Shown: positions 5,762 to 18,207 of the stretch, piece by piece
Position numbering within the stretch: position 1 is the first letter of the stretch
Layout: each line of letters starts with the position of its first letter
Sequence record: PZ239915.1
Origin: a phage
DNA: 36,820 nt
Reading direction: 5' to 3' (one strand)
Position numbers and translations under genes: made by a program
Notes under the pieces: model-generated
Seen by the model: the letters and a program-made list of their open reading frames with translations, nothing else
What the model was told of the DNA's origin: nothing
Database searches by the model: none

Positions 5762-6126
5762 TAGTGTGCGTAGCTTTATCTGGATGCTCAGCAACAGATG
5801 CGCTGACTGGTTTGATTGGAAGTAAGCCGGAAATTAGCGCTCAGGCCGGAGCGGAAAACAATAAGGTTGGTGTTGGGTTAACGAACAAGGTTGACTCCAG
5901 CAGCTCCAGTGAAGCAACTGTTAAAGATTCTAAGGTTGGGTCACTGGATAGCTCGAGCGGGAAAAAGACTGCTGACAACTCGATTAAGGCATCTACAATC
6001 ACCGCAGAAAAGATTGAGATTACCAACAACGACTCATCCGCACTTCCATGGATTGGAACAGGAGCTATGGGGTTACTTGTTTTTATCCTCCTGACTGTAA
6101 TCTTAAGACGTAAAAAAGCCTCCTGA
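5737..6126 (+). CDS. unimolecular spanin (lipoprotein with C-terminal TMD)
   Basis: Lipobox LSGC at the N-terminus plus C-terminal transmembrane segment GLLVFILLTVIL and basic tail; overlaps the endolysin 3' end by 25 nt; AGGAGA RBS. Confidence 0.65.
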   Translation: MLKWIAALVVCVALSGCSATDALTGLIGSKPEISAQAGAENNKVGVGLTNKVDSSSSSEATVKDSKVGSLDSSSGKKTADNSIKASTITAEKIEITNNDSSALPWIGTGAMGLLVFILLTVILRRKKAS

Positions 6127-6142
6127 TGGAGGCTATATTTTT
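6112..6142. terminator. bidirectional terminator between convergent genes
   Basis: AAAAAA, GCCTCC/GGAGGC stem with TGAT loop, then TATATTTTT; sits between the spanin (+) and a minus-strand ORF. Confidence 0.55.
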
Positions 6143-6478: not shown

Positions 6479-7009
6479 CTACCTCCCGTGATTATCATGG
6501 TAAGAAAGCGAGATCTCAGCAGATTTTCTTGCGCATGCTGCATCAAAAATATTATCGTAATAACCAAGACTGGTAGTTTTCCCATTGACCCCTATCTGCG
6601 AAAAGTATTTTCCACGCTTATTTATTGTTACGCCAGATATTCCAGTCTTATTCCTCTTATTCATTGATAGGTTCTTCTGGTTGCATTGCCTTGACACCAG
6701 CCTTAGATTTTCAACTCTGTTGTCATTTCTTATGTGATTAATGTGATCAACTTGCATTCCTTCCGGTATACTTCCATTAATCATCTCCCATATAACCCTA
6801 TGAGCCATATATCTTTCCCCATATATACCAAGAAGTATATAACCACAACCTTTATCATCAAGGCATCCAGCTACCTTGCCAGCGTATTGGGTGTTGCACT
6901 TATTCATTGTTCTAACCTGAGAGAAGTGACTTAAAGGCCTTATTTTCCATATCAGTTTTCCATTTTTGTAATAAAAATATTCATGCCAGTTCATTTCCGC
7001 TAACTCCAT
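6479..7009 (-). CDS. HNH homing endonuclease with AP2-like DNA-binding domain
   Basis: VDHINHIRNDNRVENLR HNH motif; downstream GISGV...YFSQIGVNGK...LGYYD resembles an AP2 domain. Confidence 0.75.
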   Translation of the reverse strand: MELAEMNWHEYFYYKNGKLIWKIRPLSHFSQVRTMNKCNTQYAGKVAGCLDDKGCGYILLGIYGERYMAHRVIWEMINGSIPEGMQVDHINHIRNDNRVENLRLVSRQCNQKNLSMNKRNKTGISGVTINKRGKYFSQIGVNGKTTSLGYYDNIFDAACARKSAEISLSYHDNHGR

Positions 7010-7076: not shown

Positions 7077-8660
7077 TCACCCAAGCAATCTCGGATTAAT
7101 GTAAACTTTATCACCAATCAGGCACGTGTAGTTTTTCTCGTCAAGCATTGGCAGCAAGTGATCTTTAATCTTCGTCATTACCCCCGCCTGGGCTTCGAAA
7201 GGTTTAACCTTGCGCGCCGCCTCGTATAGGGAGCGAATACCTACTACGCCCTTCCCATTTTTGCCTTGCTTGATCAGTATGTCAATCAGCTTGTTCATCT
7301 CTGCACTGTCACCAGCGTGACCAGCGGCGTTAGCAGATGAAAGGTAAGTTTTGCTCAGTTCATTAAATATAATTACAGCCTCCTGCATGGTATCAAGCTC
7401 AATCTCCCTGGACTTCCGCGGACTCCCGCCGTTAGGGTTGAACCAGTTACGAACAGTATGAAGAACAGCCGCAATCCTGATGGCCTGTTTATCAAACTTA
7501 CCCAGCGCGCCTCGCAACATTGTATGTGAATACTTCCCGCCATCAGCAAGGTGAGGTTCCATCTCCTGACGTGCTCGGTTGAGATACTTCATCGCTGAGT
7601 TGCTTACTGTCAGCTTAACATCTTGCTCATTCATTATTTCGTGAACCAGGCGGAAGTAGTCAGCCTTTAGCCCACCATCAATAGGTTCGTAAGTTGAGTC
7701 TCCATTTTCATCAACGAATACACGCTCGCCCAGGAATGACTTTTCACGCACCAGCAGAAAACGTTCCGATACACCGATACCTCGCGCACCAGCATTCATG
7801 ATTGCGTTTATTGTCTCATCTTGCGCAATTACAGAGATGCATCCCATAGCGACGAAACTCATGTTGTTTTCTGCGTTCGCACGCGCAATGGACACGTTAC
7901 CAGCATCCCATGCTTTCAGCACAAGCTCGCTGTTCGTTTTCTTCGAGCCATCACCATAGGTCATACCTAGCAGAGAGTTCACGCTCGTTGCTTCATCAGA
8001 GATAACTGCGAAGTTGCCCTGGCGGTTGTTTATTCGCGCAAGACCTTCAGGCGTCGTATCTGATACTGGAAATACGATATCGCAAAGTTTCTCGAGTTTT
8101 TCCTCTAGTTCCTCTTTCTCTTCGAAGAGAGAAGCCATTTCTGAAGGTGATTTCTCCTGCTTCATCTCTTTGGATAATGCAGATAGTTTAGCCATGATCT
8201 TTTTGCGCTCACGCTTCCGCAACTCATTCAGTCGCTCAGTCTCAGCAATCATTGGAGCAATTGAAAGTGAGTTGATTGCTGATTTACCTGTCGATGGCGG
8301 CTGACTGGTTACGACGTATAGAGAGGTCGGTTGCTGGGTTCCGTGATACTCAACAGTAAATCGCCCCAGCATGGAGGCAGAAATACACCCCAGAAAGTGC
8401 ATATAAGCTGAAGACTCTGGAAATTGAACCGAACGAGCAATATTGGCTGACAGTTTACCAACAACGTCAATATCATTGCCGAGTGAGATTACCGGGTATT
8501 TGTCATTTGCTGCATCAATCTCGACCGGAGCCTTCCAGAATGATTGGGACTGGCGATAGCCATTGGCATTAATGGCGACTCGCAGTGGCGGGAGGTTGTC
8601 TGCGGCAGCAATTGCCATAACCTGTTCAACAGATAGTTTATCTTCGTTGAAATCAAACAT
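7077..8660 (-). CDS. hypothetical 527-aa protein with P-loop-like core
   Basis: Long ORF; deviant Walker A TSQPPSTGKS and Walker-B-like FAVISDEAT in the central region. N- and C-terminal ~45 and ~75 aa are paralogous to the 174-aa protein at 11389..11913. Confidence 0.7.
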   Translation of the reverse strand: MFDFNEDKLSVEQVMAIAAADNLPPLRVAINANGYRQSQSFWKAPVEIDAANDKYPVISLGNDIDVVGKLSANIARSVQFPESSAYMHFLGCISASMLGRFTVEYHGTQQPTSLYVVTSQPPSTGKSAINSLSIAPMIAETERLNELRKRERKKIMAKLSALSKEMKQEKSPSEMASLFEEKEELEEKLEKLCDIVFPVSDTTPEGLARINNRQGNFAVISDEATSVNSLLGMTYGDGSKKTNSELVLKAWDAGNVSIARANAENNMSFVAMGCISVIAQDETINAIMNAGARGIGVSERFLLVREKSFLGERVFVDENGDSTYEPIDGGLKADYFRLVHEIMNEQDVKLTVSNSAMKYLNRARQEMEPHLADGGKYSHTMLRGALGKFDKQAIRIAAVLHTVRNWFNPNGGSPRKSREIELDTMQEAVIIFNELSKTYLSSANAAGHAGDSAEMNKLIDILIKQGKNGKGVVGIRSLYEAARKVKPFEAQAGVMTKIKDHLLPMLDEKNYTCLIGDKVYINPRLLG

Positions 8661-8741: not shown

Positions 8742-9121
8742 TATTGCGCCTCGAAGTGATATGTCTCACAAAGAGTGTAAAATCCAACATCCTCGCTACG
8801 GTAAAGCTGCCATGGCTGACCATCCTCATCGTAAATGTATCCGGCAGACTGACCAAGCCCGGCATGAAGATTTACCTGGTAACGCTTGTTTTCTTTAAAG
8901 TCTTTTTTTACTCCCGACTTGTGGTTAACCTTTGTGCAGTAAAGGGTTTTAGTCTTAATGTATTTGCCGCGCTCATTTAAGTAAATCCATTTCCCATCTT
9001 TCTTGATTTGCTCAAATTCCACCTCCTCAACTACACCATTAATCCATTGGGGGGCCTTTTTAACGCGAGCTTTGTAGAGTACGTTTTCGTTGCTAATGAA
9101 GTTTTTAGTTGTTGTTGTCAT
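8735..9121 (-). CDS. hypothetical protein (128 aa)
   Basis: Track ORF; promoter box, -10-like hexamer and CATCGAAACGAAAC leader on the minus strand upstream. Confidence 0.55.
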   Translation of the reverse strand: MTTTTKNFISNENVLYKARVKKAPQWINGVVEEVEFEQIKKDGKWIYLNERGKYIKTKTLYCTKVNHKSGVKKDFKENKRYQVNLHAGLGQSAGYIYDEDGQPWQLYRSEDVGFYTLCETYHFEAQYL

Positions 9122-9965: not shown

Positions 9966-10145
9966 TCAAATAAATGGTAAGCATTCTTCGCAGCCAAGCC
10001 CATCGCAGCACATGAATTCATCCTCTGACTGGAATTGCTTAGCCAAATCTATGTCCAACTTTCCGAGCACCACAAGGTCGGTGTAATCTTCGTTAAGTCC
10101 AATCAGTGCGCACTCGTGGCGTAACTCATCTTTATCAATCTTCAT
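9966..10145 (-). CDS. hypothetical Cys-rich protein (59 aa)
   Basis: Manual translation; GAGGGGAT RBS; C-terminal CCDGLGCEEC cluster suggests metal binding. First gene of the leftward unit next to the control region. Confidence 0.35.
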   Translation of the reverse strand: MKIDKDELRHECALIGLNEDYTDLVVLGKLDIDLAKQFQSEDEFMCCDGLGCEECLPFI

Positions 10146-10846
10146 ATCTATCCCCTCGTTGTTGATGAGTTAACTATAGCCACACCATACCATAATGTCT
10201 TTAGCAAAAAGTGCCATTCGTTAGATTTATGTATTGTTGCAGATATTGCAATGATTCACATGATTATTGCACATACAGCAATATTGCTTCAGATGCAATG
10301 ATGTTTTTGATTGTTGCGAGATTTGTAATGATTGATGCGTGAGGTGAATGAAAGATGGATGGACTACCATACAAGTTGATTTTACCAATCGATGAGCCAT
10401 TCTTGTGATATACGAGTAACCCACGTATACCAAGTGTCGTCACAAAAGTTAGTGGGCACTAACCTACGTTTTTACGCGAGATATACACACGATATACATT
10501 AAAATATCTATATATATCAACCTTTTACTTTATTATTATTATTATTATTATATATATGTATACTGCGTATACCGATCATTGGTGAGATAATTGATATGTT
10601 CCGCGCAGATATTCTGTCACCTGTAGGAAAAGGATGACACTGTAGGAATAGATAGGCATGCATGCGGCCTGGTGGGTAAAAAAGTGTATACACGGCGTAC
10701 GCGCAATATACATATAGAGATGATGCGGTGCTAGAGGCGGTTTTGCGTATTAGGTTAAAAATATACAAAGAAATACTTTGACTAACGCGTAAATCTGATG
10801 CAATATACCAATCACTGAAACGAAGTACACAACAACGAGGTTATAC
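10146..10846. promoter_or_regulatory. divergent intergenic control region (candidate operators/origin)
   Basis: About 700 bp with no credible ORF between divergent gene sets. Contains two ~24-bp repeats ATTGTTGC(A/G)AGAT(A/T)TTG(C/T)AATGATT at 10232 and 10309, palindromes GCAATATTGC and GTGTATACAC, a (TTA)7 tract at ~10530, and CTGTAGGAA x2 at 10621 and 10640. Confidence 0.5.
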
Positions 10847-11389
10847 ATGAATGAAGTAACGCTTGGTGAAGTAATCAGGAATATGGTAAGTAAAGCCATG
10901 GAGTCCAGCAGTGGTGAGTTTAAGGTTCCTGTAAGGGAAATATTCAAGGTGCTTAGAGGTCGGGATTATCCTGAGCTAAAGTATGATGTTGAAACTGATG
11001 AGATCATCAACCTTAAGGAGCGGTCAATTCCAGAATTGAAGAACTCATACATTTACAATACGGTATCAAGGATGCCTCAGCTAAGAGTTGCAGGAAAGCA
11101 TGCTAAGCACAAGATAATCTGGATTGATGATGATGGTGAGCAGACGAGTGCAAAGCAATTCGACGGTGACGGTGCAGATAAGTATCTTGTAATCCAGATC
11201 TGCGATGGTGAACATAAGAAGAGCGAGAGCGCCAGGCGAAAGAGAGATAGCGACGCTGCTGTTATTGAATCATTCAAGTCAAGACTAATGAAGGTAGTAC
11301 CTAGCGTTATGGACTTAGATGGTGAGCAGAAGGTTGGCGCAGAGATTGCTATCGGTAGATTTTATGATTTGATTAAGGATGCTAAATAA
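10847..11389 (+). CDS. hypothetical protein (180 aa)
   Basis: First ORF of the rightward unit after the control region; GAGG RBS; stop overlaps the next start. Confidence 0.55.
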   Translation: MNEVTLGEVIRNMVSKAMESSSGEFKVPVREIFKVLRGRDYPELKYDVETDEIINLKERSIPELKNSYIYNTVSRMPQLRVAGKHAKHKIIWIDDDGEQTSAKQFDGDGADKYLVIQICDGEHKKSESARRKRDSDAAVIESFKSRLMKVVPSVMDLDGEQKVGAEIAIGRFYDLIKDAK

Positions 11390-11913
11390 TGTTTGATTTC
11401 AACGAAGACAAATTGACGGATGAACAGATTATGAGTATTGCAAAGCAGGATGGAATTCCACCGCTACGGATTGCAATCAATGCAAATGGGTATCGGCATG
11501 TTCAGCACCTCTGGGGCCAGCCTGATGCATCGGGAGTCTACATAGATGAAGAGCTGGGAGTTCTGATTAAGTTGATTAGGAAAATGGCAAGGAACGGGAG
11601 GGGAGTGGTGGGTGTCAAGTCTGTACACGAGGGCGCTCGCAAGATTAAGCCGTTCGTAGGACGCTTTGATGTCATGCGCATAATCAAGGATGAACTAATC
11701 CCAGCACTTGATAAGATGAATCTCACATGCCTCATTGGCGATAAGATTTATGTTCATCCGGCAATCATTGATGAGTACTGGCAGCCTAACTTCAAAACTT
11801 ACGAAGGTGAACATGCTAGTAGACTACCATACCACTTGCGGTACAGCGAGGAAGAGGTTGAGGTGGCCATTGAGTTCTATAGGAAAGCTAAATCACTACT
11901 GAATGGTAAATAG
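11389..11913 (+). CDS. short paralogue of the 527-aa protein (N- and C-terminal modules only)
   Basis: MFDFNEDKL...PPLRIAINANGYR and GRGVVGVKS...KPF...TCLIGDKIY match both ends of the 7077..8660 product; first 20 nt are identical to that gene's start. Confidence 0.6.
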   Translation: MFDFNEDKLTDEQIMSIAKQDGIPPLRIAINANGYRHVQHLWGQPDASGVYIDEELGVLIKLIRKMARNGRGVVGVKSVHEGARKIKPFVGRFDVMRIIKDELIPALDKMNLTCLIGDKIYVHPAIIDEYWQPNFKTYEGEHASRLPYHLRYSEEEVEVAIEFYRKAKSLLNGK

Positions 11914-16117: not shown

Positions 16118-16624
16118 ATGAGTAAAGCAGCATTAAAGATGGGTGAGGGAAATTTCAAGGCGCTCTACAACAAAAAATATGGTGATATTGCTATGGTGGC
16201 AATTAACCGCAAGTACACGCCTGAGGAAGTGTTCGATTTCTCTGTTCGATACTTCTCTTGGGCAGAAAGTGAGGCAATCAAGGCAATTGAGACGGCAGCA
16301 TTCCAGGGTGTGGTTAGTGAAAGCCTGGTGCACAAACCTCGAGTGTTCACATTAACTGGGTTGGCACTATTCATGGGTGTCAATATCAATAGGTTCGCTC
16401 GCTGGCGTACTGAGGCTGGATACTCTGATGTGATGGAATTCATTGACAACGTAATCTACGAGCAGAAATATCAGCTTGGCGTCGCGGGCATAATCAACTC
16501 AACTATCGTTGGTAAAGAGCTTGGCATTGATAAGCCGCAGGAGATTAATATTAGCAACAACTCAACAGCTAACGATGTTGACAGTATGAAGGAAGCTCTG
16601 GAATCTGTAATTAGCAAGCTATAA
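16118..16624 (+). CDS. terminase small subunit (putative)
   Basis: 168-aa ORF immediately upstream of the large terminase; HTH-like TLTGLALFMGVNINRFARW; preceded by a terminator and an extended -10. Confidence 0.6.
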   Translation: MSKAALKMGEGNFKALYNKKYGDIAMVAINRKYTPEEVFDFSVRYFSWAESEAIKAIETAAFQGVVSESLVHKPRVFTLTGLALFMGVNINRFARWRTEAGYSDVMEFIDNVIYEQKYQLGVAGIINSTIVGKELGIDKPQEINISNNSTANDVDSMKEALESVISKL

Positions 16625-16641: not shown

Positions 16642-18207
16642 ATGTCTTTAGTATGGGAAGAAATGACCATTCAGGAAAAGATGGCCGTTAAGGCGATATC
16701 AGAACACAGCTTCGAGGGCTTTCTTCGTTGCTGGTTCCAGATCACGCAAGGCGAGCGATACATCCCTAACTGGCATCACAAGTACTTGTGCAGAATAATT
16801 GACGAGATTATCGCAGGAGAGCGCAAGGACACCATCATTAACATAGCACCAGGAAGCGGAAAGACGGAAATTGCCTCAATCCACTTCCCGGCCTATTCGA
16901 TGGTTAAGCTTAGGAAGGTGCGCAACCTTAACATCTCTTTTGCTGACTCCCTGGTTAAGCGTAACTCGAAGCGAGTACGTGACCTTATCAAGTCTCAAGA
17001 ATTTCAGTCACTCTGGCCATGCAAGTTTGGCACTTGCAAAGACGATGAGCTTCAGGTTCTTGATGAGAGTGGCAAGGTTAGATTTGAGTCAATATCAAAG
17101 GCGGCTGGAGGCCAGATTACTGGCGCTCGCGGTGGGTACATAACCGAAACATACAGCGGAGCCGTTCTTTTGGATGACTTTGACAAACCCGCAGATATGT
17201 TATCAGCAGTGTACCGCTCGAATAATCACGTAATGCTTAAAAATACGATTCGCTCACGTCGAGCCAGTTCTGTAAAAGGAAAAGCGACACCAATCATTTC
17301 GATACAGCAGCGGCTTCACGTCAATGACTCAACCTATTTCATGATGGAAGGCGGCATGGGTATAGAATTCGATTTGATTAAGATACCAGCATTAGTTACT
17401 GAGGATTACATTGATTCACTTCCTGACTGGATTAAAGATCAGTTTGCTGAGGACGTACTAAGCAGCGAATACATTGAGCGAGATGGCGTAAAGTACTACA
17501 GCTACTTTCCTAAAAAGGAATCCGTAAACGACCTGGTGGCAATGTGGGATAGCGACCCGTACACATTCCTTAGTCAATATCAGCAGGAGCCAGTAGCGCT
17601 GGGTGGCAACCTAATTAACGTGGACTGGTTCCAGAGAATCAGTGATACGTTCAGACCTCCAGCTAAGTACGACTATCGATTCATAACTTGCGATACCGCA
17701 ATGACCACTAAAAGTTACAGCGACTTCTCTGTTCTTCAGTTGTGGGGCTATAAAGATGCTAAGATTTACCTTATTGATCAGCGCAGGGGTAAATGGGAGG
17801 CCCCAGAGTTGGAGGCTGAACTGCTGGACTTCGAGAAGAAATCAAGGGCAACCAGTCAGTCAGATGGTATCCTCAGAAAGATTATTATCGAGAAGAAAGC
17901 GTCTGGTATAGGCCTGATTCAATCAGCTGGCAGGGTTATGCGAACACCGATAGAGCCATACGTACCGGATAATGACAAGCTAACCAGGGTGATGAGTGCA
18001 CTACCACAGATTAAGGCTGGTAACGTAGTTCTTCCAGAGTCATCGCCGTGGCTAAACGGATTGCTCACTGAGGTTGCGGCTTTTACGGCAGATGACTCGC
18101 ATAAGCACGACGACCAAATTGACTGTCTAACAATGGCGGCAAACCTTGTACTTAACATCGCGGATGATCCTAAGTCGAGACTGATGCGCATAGCTGGAAT
18201 GAAATAG
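16642..18207 (+). CDS. terminase large subunit
   Basis: 521 aa; Walker A APGSGKT in the N-terminal ATPase region, acidic nuclease-type C-terminal half; position before the portal. Confidence 0.85.
   Translation: MSLVWEEMTIQEKMAVKAISEHSFEGFLRCWFQITQGERYIPNWHHKYLCRIIDEIIAGERKDTIINIAPGSGKTEIASIHFPAYSMVKLRKVRNLNISFADSLVKRNSKRVRDLIKSQEFQSLWPCKFGTCKDDELQVLDESGKVRFESISKAAGGQITGARGGYITETYSGAVLLDDFDKPADMLSAVYRSNNHVMLKNTIRSRRASSVKGKATPIISIQQRLHVNDSTYFMMEGGMGIEFDLIKIPALVTEDYIDSLPDWIKDQFAEDVLSSEYIERDGVKYYSYFPKKESVNDLVAMWDSDPYTFLSQYQQEPVALGGNLINVDWFQRISDTFRPPAKYDYRFITCDTAMTTKSYSDFSVLQLWGYKDAKIYLIDQRRGKWEAPELEAELLDFEKKSRATSQSDGILRKIIIEKKASGIGLIQSAGRVMRTPIEPYVPDNDKLTRVMSALPQIKAGNVVLPESSPWLNGLLTEVAAFTADDSHKHDDQIDCLTMAANLVLNIADDPKSRLMRIAGMK

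Follow-up and report, generated by a model that had tools for sequence, protein, structure and literature searches.

The non-coding gap at positions 10146-10846 of a 36,820-nucleotide stretch of phage DNA (record PZ239915.1; the whole stretch is referred to below as the window) forms the left-end control region of a T1-like coliphage genome and is conserved among relatives. As far as read-start statistics allow, published termini place the first cut of a packaging series in this gap, at about 10360-10385, with heads filled rightward. The window shares 99.5% identity with Escherichia phage vB_EcoD_SU57 (MT511058; Drexlerviridae, Braunvirinae), a T1-like coliphage. A further 81 records match at 79-93%; their labels are nearly all those of coliphages or Shigella phages, and those examined are T1-like. 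T1 itself belongs to the seven classical T phages and is notorious for contaminating laboratories and fermenters. A first-pass annotation of the same letters had read the gap as an AT-rich divergent control region fitting a repressor/activator operator array, an iteron-type replication origin, or both. It did not consider the initiation of headful packaging, which is the sole function here with physical evidence.

We think it likely that the left-end control region of T1-like phages is a composite of four functions lying side by side. Host RNA polymerase would start outwards from two promoters at the edges, P_L (10173-10217, with an ATAGCAC...TTGCTAAA upstream element) and P_R (10778-10806). 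P_L would serve the leftward unit with its helicase gene, and P_R the early genes, followed by the terminase and structural genes. The small terminase, of the P22 gp3 family, may assemble on a four-unit array at 10233-10333, while terminase would make its first cut inside or at the edge of a block at 10343-10383 and fill heads rightward. Roughly 100-190 bp inside the packaged end, a meltable core, an integration host factor (IHF)-like site and flanking units would together form a nucleoprotein assembly site, most likely a replication origin served by a DUF3987 helicase. A palindrome containing TGTAGGAA, at 10612-10648, could then act as the operator for an early protein.

The evidence for the cut comes from three phages. 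For SU57, PhageTerm gave several candidate ends, and position 1 was set at an abrupt change in read coverage (PMC7718038); that record starts at window position 10385 and ends at 10384. For MSK, PhageTerm reported a forward headful packaging start at 36,862 (PMC8421802), a peak that aligns gap-free to window position 10367. The record of UDF157lw, a Rogue-like phage, was re-organised according to PhageTerm (PMC10838988), and its first base aligns to 10360. Three published termini, from phages of two subfamilies, therefore fall within 26 bp (10360-10385), each of them within a near-invariant 40-bp block or at its edge, and this clustering indicates that the series-initiation cut lies there in this clade, with packaging proceeding rightward. 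The SU57 authors stated that pac "was not identified", but placed it within this untranslated region, as in T1, and reported restriction patterns typical of a permuted genome (PMC7718038). The elements of this part of the region are as follows (percentages are pairwise identities in an alignment of six relatives).

10218-10333: AGATTTATG followed by four inverted-repeat units TTGC-N7-GCAA, candidate packaging recognition site; units at 10237-10251, 10267-10281 and 10284-10298 exact, unit at 10314-10328 degenerate; 94% over 10218-10318
10343-10383, + strand: near-invariant 40-bp block GTGAATGAAAGATGGATGGACTACCATACAAGTTGATTTT, zone of the first packaging cut; 94%
10385-10404: hypervariable segment; 49%, between blocks of 94% and 77%

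Other records of the family open in or near the same place. That of T1 starts with an annotated 2,800-bp terminal repeat which begins in the homologous gap, and its position 1 falls in a GATTGTTGCA-N5-TGCAAC unit belonging to T1's own version of the array. The break in the TLS record adjoins a GATTTGATT repeat cluster at an equivalent relative place; the pac site of TLS was located by restriction mapping (PMC11447400). The terminase is likewise of the pac type, with a small subunit matching GP3_package and a large subunit matching Terminase_6C. As a side observation, Drexlerviridae records start at no fewer than four places within the gap, namely at about 10237 (ESCO41), at about 10277 (Rtp, OzMSK, IMM-001), at 10360 (UDF157lw) and at 10385 (SU57), and 43 Veterinaerplatzvirus records start at arbitrary points.

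Immediately to the left of the cut lies the TTGC-N7-GCAA array. Three exact units occur within 62 bp, and the window holds six in total, against 1.17 expected; none of 100 shuffled sequences reached six. Lone exact units are also seen at 16188-16202, in the small terminase gene, and at 11471-11485, in the gene of a 174-residue helicase paralog. The array is found in Braunvirinae, Rogunavirinae and Nouzillyvirus, and in T1 it takes the form of GATTGTTGC-N5/6-TGCAA units. It ends about 30 bp left of the cut zone and is the most conserved element adjoining the cut. Its unit motif is recognisable in T1, which elsewhere in the gap holds only for the promoter element and the AT-rich core. Phages with near-identical arrays have small terminases of 93-98% identity. 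Given its place beside the cut, its conservation and this similarity among the small terminases, we infer that the array is the recognition and assembly site of the small terminase. The first-pass annotation had described part of this array as two direct repeats of about 24 nucleotides. Copies do exist at 10233-10256 and 10310-10333 (75% identical), with a third at 10263-10286 (71%), although they are not direct-repeat iterons. They are made of inverted-repeat units that adjoin the packaging cut and are separated from the AT-rich tract, to their right, by 165-265 bp. Reading the TTGCA units as sigma-54 or as -35/-10 promoter elements was rejected on inspection, as the partner hexamers are not consistent.

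Several points weigh against this picture of the packaging site. The termini are read-start statistics drawn from three papers rather than direct sequencing of ends, and the SU57 authors allowed several ends, a comparison with T1 having aided their choice (PMC7718038). The records of Rtp, Rogue1, T1 and TLS break 50-110 bp further left, in or beside the array (those of Rtp, Rogue1 and several later phages open inside it, at about 10277-10282), so the cut may be spread out or clade-dependent. Covariation cannot reveal what binds the array, because the array itself, the small terminase and the helicase all vary too little. Sd1 has an unchanged array with a small terminase of just 65% identity, and the helicase varies no more than the array does, so that covariation does not discriminate between the two proteins. 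Resemblance to the P22 pac site does not help either. The match to GAAGATTTATCTGAAGTCGTTA is not above background, and only the 8-nucleotide core AGATTTAT matches in the region, at 10223-10230. The P22 site is matched best (15 of 22 positions) at 8866, 12014 and 28512, all outside the region, and with better P22-like matches elsewhere we gave the core at 10223 no weight. The pac site of TLS was assigned by resemblance to P22, with the same core argument (PMC11447400). The match at 8866-8887 (+ strand, GAAGATTTACCTGG...; core 11 of 12) lies inside a leftward gene for a 128-residue protein and is probably due to chance, because the ends map at 10360-10385.

The gap itself is a stable feature of the family. 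Nearly all the T1-like relatives examined keep it, at a length of 669-713 nucleotides, with Rtp at 1015; that of T1 is exactly 700 nucleotides, made up of 162 at the right end of its record and 538 at the left end. The first-pass annotation had proposed a comparison with related phages and named poor conservation as the outcome that would speak against it; the comparison shows a strongly conserved homologous gap. Conservation is block-wise, with pairwise identities ranging from 49% to 98%, a footprint of selection beyond chance. The same order of elements recurs in Rogunavirinae, Nouzillyvirus and TLS- and T1-like phages, also where the sequence has diverged. The fall from 94% to 49% identity starts exactly at the SU57 genome end (10385), and the segment 10385-10404 is probably a mosaic junction. 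The sequence right of the cut and the N-terminal two-thirds of the first rightward gene, coding for a DUF7174 protein, are swapped between phages as one module, while the C-terminal third of that gene forms a separate mosaic piece. A recombinogenic double-strand end at pac would explain such an exchangeable right-hand module.

The remaining descriptive content of the first-pass annotation held up well: every feature that it listed exists, with several coordinates shifted by one. The region separates a leftward unit, whose open reading frame (ORF) starts at 10145, from a rightward unit starting at 10847. Its GC content is 36%, compared with 44% for the window. ORFs of at least 30 codons do occur, and none keeps a constant position or length across ten relatives. 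Both palindromes are real (GCAATATTGC at 10278-10287 and GTGTATACAC at 10684-10693), as are the (TTA)7 tract at 10530-10551 and the CTGTAGGAA doublet at 10621 and 10640, the sole two copies in the window. The ATATAC/CGTATAC units are likewise present: TATAC occurs 11 times on the + strand of the region and 25 times in the 36.8 kb, a 39-fold higher density, and on both strands together the region holds 15 copies against 4.8 expected, a number reached in none of 2000 shuffles. The suggested function as an operator array stands in part. The region is a non-coding divergent control region rich in repeats of a protein-binding type, and no repressor or activator was identified. For the iteron-type origin, an AT-rich tract flanked by short repeats is indeed present, and an origin is inferred from this layout alone.

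That tract and the elements around it occupy the middle of the region, to the right of the cut.

10405-10432, + strand: GATATACGAGTAACCCACGTATACC, first TATAC pair, counterpart of a family-wide TAyACGCGTA palindrome
10446-10475, + strand: small hairpin GTTAGT-loop-ACTAAC followed by a T run, terminator-like, in the closest clade only
10463-10498, + strand: three or four direct units (T/A)TAC(A/G)C with a period of 10-11 bp, abutting the AT-rich tract
10497-10556: AT-rich core, 90% A+T, candidate DNA-unwinding element; 98% pairwise identity
10515-10527: IHF core consensus TATCAACCTTTTA; the window has just one other exact match
10558-10573, - strand: pair of GTATAC units at a distance of 9 bp, repeating the left-hand units in inverted orientation

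Of all 60-mers in the 36.8-kb window, the AT-rich core forms the least stable duplex (z = 5.5; the next reaches 3.6). The direct units that abut it read CCTACGT, TTTACGC, ATATACA and ATATACA in the window, and they hold the same register to the tract in 15 of 18 T1-like phages, with 25 of 54 spacings exactly 10 bp and 37 of 54 between 9 and 11 bp. The ATATAC/CGTATAC motifs of the first-pass annotation are this clade's version of a general phased-unit feature. On the other flank, the units of 14 phages fit the left-hand units better inverted than direct (summed best matches 89 vs 73), and the inverted match reaches 8 of 8 positions in AugustePiccard and DTL. Twelve relatives of several genera (Braunvirinae, Rogunavirinae, Nouzillyvirus) have a trinucleotide run of 4-9 copies, while T1 has no such run of three or more copies. 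Across five relatives, the hairpin at 10446-10475 keeps its stem unchanged and varies at the two central loop bases; its fold is weak (-6 kcal/mol, z = -1.1).

This arrangement resembles two known kinds of origin. As in iteron origins, at least three direct repeats lie beside an AT-rich unwinding element, with units far shorter than classical iterons. As in the Rep-type origins of Staphylococcus aureus pathogenicity islands (SaPIs), opposed short repeats stand on both sides of an AT-rich centre; the SaPI repeats are 5-6 nucleotides long, with at least two on each side of the central AT-rich region in opposite orientation (PMC9371898). The papers on SU57 and TLS found no replication origin (PMC7718038, PMC11447400). 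One member of the DUF3987 family is a 5'-3' helicase of a mobile element, for which a small C-terminal domain is predicted (PMC11724360). From the layout, we regard the core at 10497-10556 as the best candidate for a T1-like replication origin. A more specific and tentative proposal is that 10463-10573 is a SaPI-like origin on which the DUF3987 helicase might load itself, about 100 bp inside the packaging cut, so that origin, pac and early promoters would form one 700-bp module with the double-strand end at pac as a recombination hot spot. Such a hot spot would explain why mosaicism starts exactly at the cut.

A number of results count against an origin here. The helicase is 91-98% identical whatever variant of the units is present, and the units at the flanks are just 5-7 bp long. 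No exact DnaA box occurs in the region, where near-matches are not enriched, and the TLS authors report no iterons in the TLS genome (PMC11447400). In sequence and profile searches the helicase matched no solved structure, SaPI Rep included. The GC-skew check proposed by the first-pass annotation proved uninformative, as the skew merely follows transcription: its sign changes at 6,000-6,130 and at about 10,150, exactly at the switches of transcribed strand, and it stays positive over the + strand genes left of the region. As binders of the variable units, the helicase and the small terminase were both rejected, as neither covaries with them, and the 174-residue helicase paralog does not track the unit type either.

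The outer parts of the region carry a candidate operator on the right and promoter-like elements at both edges.

10146-10172, - strand: first leftward gene, 5' leader with ribosome-binding site GAGGGG, read from the sequence; 71% pairwise identity
10173-10178, - strand: P_L -10 hexamer TATAGT (ACTATA on the + strand)
10200-10217, - strand: P_L upstream element ATGGCACTTTTTGCTAAA, family-wide
10591-10660: TGTAGGAA region; 90% pairwise identity
10612-10648: TTCTGTCAC-CTGTAGGAA and GATGACA-CTGTAGGAA, a degenerate palindrome and a second TGTAGGAA copy, candidate operator
10661-10769: right-hand variable spacer with TATAC at 10687, 10707 and 10762 (a fourth copy, at 10804, lies inside P_R); 65% pairwise identity
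10778-10812, + strand: putative P_R, with -35 TTGACT at 10778-10783, a 17-nucleotide spacer and -10 CAATAT at 10801-10806
10813-10846, + strand: 5' leader (CACTGAAACGAAG... GAGG) of the DUF7174 gene, of the CATCGAAACGA type seen at other promoters of the window; 84% pairwise identity

P_L combines a TATAGT hexamer with the family element, an arrangement repeated at 17 other sites. In all, the window contains 18 copies of ATRGCACNNNTTGNTAAA, where 0.8 would be expected. Except for two, the copies share the orientation of the genes downstream; most have a TATAGT-like hexamer 20-21 nucleotides downstream, and many are then followed by a CATCGAAACGA-type leader. The element is the 21-nucleotide repeat of TLS, noted too for T1, Rtp and Rogue1 (PMC11447400). 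At the 18 sites of ATAGCACnnnTTGCTAAA (for example 637, 4667, 9184, 12208, 18204 and 30202), TTGCTA stands 22 nucleotides from the -10 hexamer, a distance too great for a normal -35. With its centre near -41, the element resembles a class II activator site, and the spacer after it often holds a GC-rich hairpin and a T run, that is, a terminator inside the promoter.

P_R lacks the ATAGCAC element and reads as a plain sigma-70 promoter. Its TTGAC is invariant in the six closest relatives, with TTGAC or TTGAT at this place in most of the remoter relatives that were read, and A2 and T6 of the -10 hexamer are kept in the same six. In spacing, conservation and distance to the genes, the pair is what would be expected of divergent sigma-70 promoters. 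A simple promoter scan missed P_R, and that scan returned no more sites than in shuffled sequences. A further candidate at TAAAAT (10500-10505) was discarded, its final T being lost in several relatives.

At the candidate operator the two palindrome arms change together: they are TTCTGACA..TGTCAGAA in 12210III, Sd1 and JeanPiccard and TTCCTACA..TGTAGGAA in RobRod40, GaoY1-9D and AHP42, while the window and BEK6 are hybrids. Such co-changing arms suggest a dimeric DNA-binding protein. Apart from the window, BEK6 alone has the TATAC copies of the adjoining spacer in full; Sd1 and JeanPiccard have some of them. The DUF7174 protein, over its N-terminal two-thirds, also groups by repeat-unit variant, with at least 58% identity within the TATAC clade and at most 51% elsewhere. 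A structural model of this protein (predicted local distance difference test score, pLDDT, 77) gave no significant match to a DNA-binding fold.

These elements can be assigned differently, and the assignments differ in what they make of the packaging ends. Were the whole region an iteron-type origin, the array and the TACRC units would bind an initiator, and the published "ends" would be artefacts or conventions. The window's least stable duplex, the phased and inverted short repeats, the IHF-like site, a nearby helicase gene as invariant as the array, and a layout equal to that of SaPI Rep-type origins (PMC9371898) would suit such a view, and no origin is known for T1-like phages. Three independent termini within 26 bp and a T1 terminal repeat that starts in the region nevertheless make it improbable, as do the position of the array, 165-265 bp from the AT tract and across the cut, the lack of enrichment of DnaA boxes and a GC skew that tracks transcription only. 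The main rival to the origin reading assigns the right-hand phased units, the IHF site and the inverted units to packaging, as a cosB- or pacR-like terminase-binding side, and turns the left array into a second binding site or a termination element. It draws on the order of cut, repeats, IHF-like site and repeats on the first-packaged side, as in lambda cosN-cosB. We consider it unlikely, as the units vary independently of the small terminase: the latter is 96-98% identical though the units differ (TATAC in the window, CATACGC in IME253, GTTACGC in DTL), whereas in Sd1 it is 65% identical and the units are the same as in the window.

It is also conceivable, if doubtful, that the repeats are mainly operators for an early regulator such as DUF7174, controlling P_R, P_L and possibly promoters in the AT tract. 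The co-changing arms of the TGTAGGAA palindrome, the grouping of the DUF7174 N-terminal two-thirds with the repeat-unit variant and promoter-like hexamers on both strands of the AT tract point that way. Yet the DUF7174 gene is physically linked to the repeats, so that co-inheritance explains the grouping; its product, as modelled, has no significant match to a DNA-binding fold; several relatives do not keep the final T of the -10-like hexamer at 10500-10505; and the promoter scan gives no more sites than shuffled sequences do. That hidden small genes or a structured non-coding RNA lie behind the conservation is scarcely credible. GenBank records of BEK6, BEK1-1 and RobRod40 do annotate short coding sequences in the gap, and these disagree with one another. 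An ORF of 93-96 codons starts in the invariant block in Sd1, JeanPiccard and BEK1-1, and is interrupted in 12210III, BEK6 and the window. There is no ORF common to all relatives, and the indels are not multiples of three. An Rfam scan left three weak hits (E = 0.14-0.68), none reaching the gathering score, and single-strand folds of sub-regions were no better than those of shuffled sequences, with z from -1.7 to +0.5. The composite of packaging site, divergent promoters, candidate origin and candidate operator remains the reading that we favour.

Genes on either side of the gap are listed below.

6479-7009, - strand: HNH endonuclease ORF (Pfam HNH_3, E = 6e-21), directly downstream of the helicase gene, closing the leftward unit
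7077-8660, - strand: DUF3987 helicase, 527 residues, in the leftward unit, 1.5 kb from the control region
9966-10145, - strand: first gene of the leftward unit, an ORF of 59 codons starting at 10145
10847-11389, + strand: first gene of the rightward unit, DUF7174 protein of 180 residues
11389-11913, + strand: second gene of the rightward unit, product of 174 residues
16118-16624: small terminase, in the rightward unit (Pfam GP3_package, E = 3e-12; P22 gp3 family)
16642-18207: large terminase, in the rightward unit (Terminase_6C)

The structural genes follow further along the long rightward unit. The HNH ORF is possibly a mobile gene of the homing type. The 174-residue protein is a "mini" paralog of the helicase: its residues 1-50 match helicase residues 1-50 at 48% identity, and its residues 55-127 match helicase residues 454-526 at 51%. 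Since it matches both ends of the helicase only, it has the N- and C-terminal domains and lacks the ATPase core, and it could compete with the helicase or regulate it. Its family has 317 members in the database. A model of the paralog, which carries the C-terminal domain, was unreliable (pLDDT 47) and was not used.

Some matches to the region come from unexpected records. The coliphage control region is contained, at 79-86% identity, in MG065688 (Campylobacter phage A110b) and PP134917 (Pseudomonas phage PsgS01F), and one further match is to a record labelled as an Enterococcus phage; these host labels look doubtful, or the preparations contaminated. The segment 10156-10223, with the leftward promoter and leader, has a blastn match of 79% over 68 nucleotides (E = 9e-6) to T4-like phages, namely Enterobacter phage EBPL and Citrobacter phage Margaery, where it falls in "hypothetical protein" regions. 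In E. coli genomes and plasmids, where satellites might borrow a pac site, no copies of the control region were found.

Put in practical terms, the question of pac in the T1 family narrows to a short list of the array, the cut block and the AT-rich core. The region offers a defined fragment for packaging or transduction vectors and for phage engineering, and it could serve to give Drexlerviridae records a uniform genome start. Should the AT-rich core indeed be the origin, it would be the first described for this family.

The closest known systems are the pac regions of T1, TLS, Rtp, SU57 and MSK, which likewise lie between a leftward helicase unit and a rightward early unit, the T1 gap being 700 nucleotides long. 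T1 and its relatives share the ATAGCAC-type element, GATTGTTGC...GCAA or GATT repeats, an AT-rich ATATCTATATA core and termini at this place, although T1 and TLS lack the 40-bp block that holds the three termini. P22 is similar in its GP3_package small terminase and in the 8-nucleotide core at 10223-10230. Its 22-bp pac site, recognised by gp3, lies inside the small terminase gene, whereas the site here is 5.7 kb upstream of that gene and the remainder of the 22-mer does not match.

Other parallels are architectural. In SPP1 pac (pacL-pacC-pacR) and lambda cos (cosQ-cosN-cosB with IHF), a cut is flanked by arrays of short repeats and a bend or IHF site, packaging runs one way from the cut, and the whole spans a few hundred bp. 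The order within lambda cosB is R3-I1-R2-R1, and SPP1 pac has pacR as its right-hand part. Here, by contrast, the small terminase belongs to the P22 gp3 family and not to those of SPP1 G1P or lambda Nu1, and the left and right repeats are mutually unrelated. With the SaPI Rep and phage P4 alpha origins the region shares repeats of 5-6 nucleotides, at least two per side and opposed around an AT-rich centre, a helicase gene close by and a helicase with a small C-terminal domain. It differs from them in that the DUF3987 helicase shows no sequence relation to any solved structure, SaPI Rep included, and does not covary with the repeats, and its gene is 1.5 kb off rather than adjacent. Iteron origins (lambda; plasmids P1, R6K and pSC101) also combine an AT-rich unwinding element with adjacent repeats and an IHF-like site. 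Their units are 17-22 bp long, compared with 5-7 bp at a 10-bp period here, where DnaA boxes are absent and a scan of 17 neighbouring and larger ORFs showed no Rep-type initiator gene. The region is a functional hub whose components, a pac site, divergent promoters and an origin-like element, are of known kinds, and whose anatomy the literature that could be searched does not describe.

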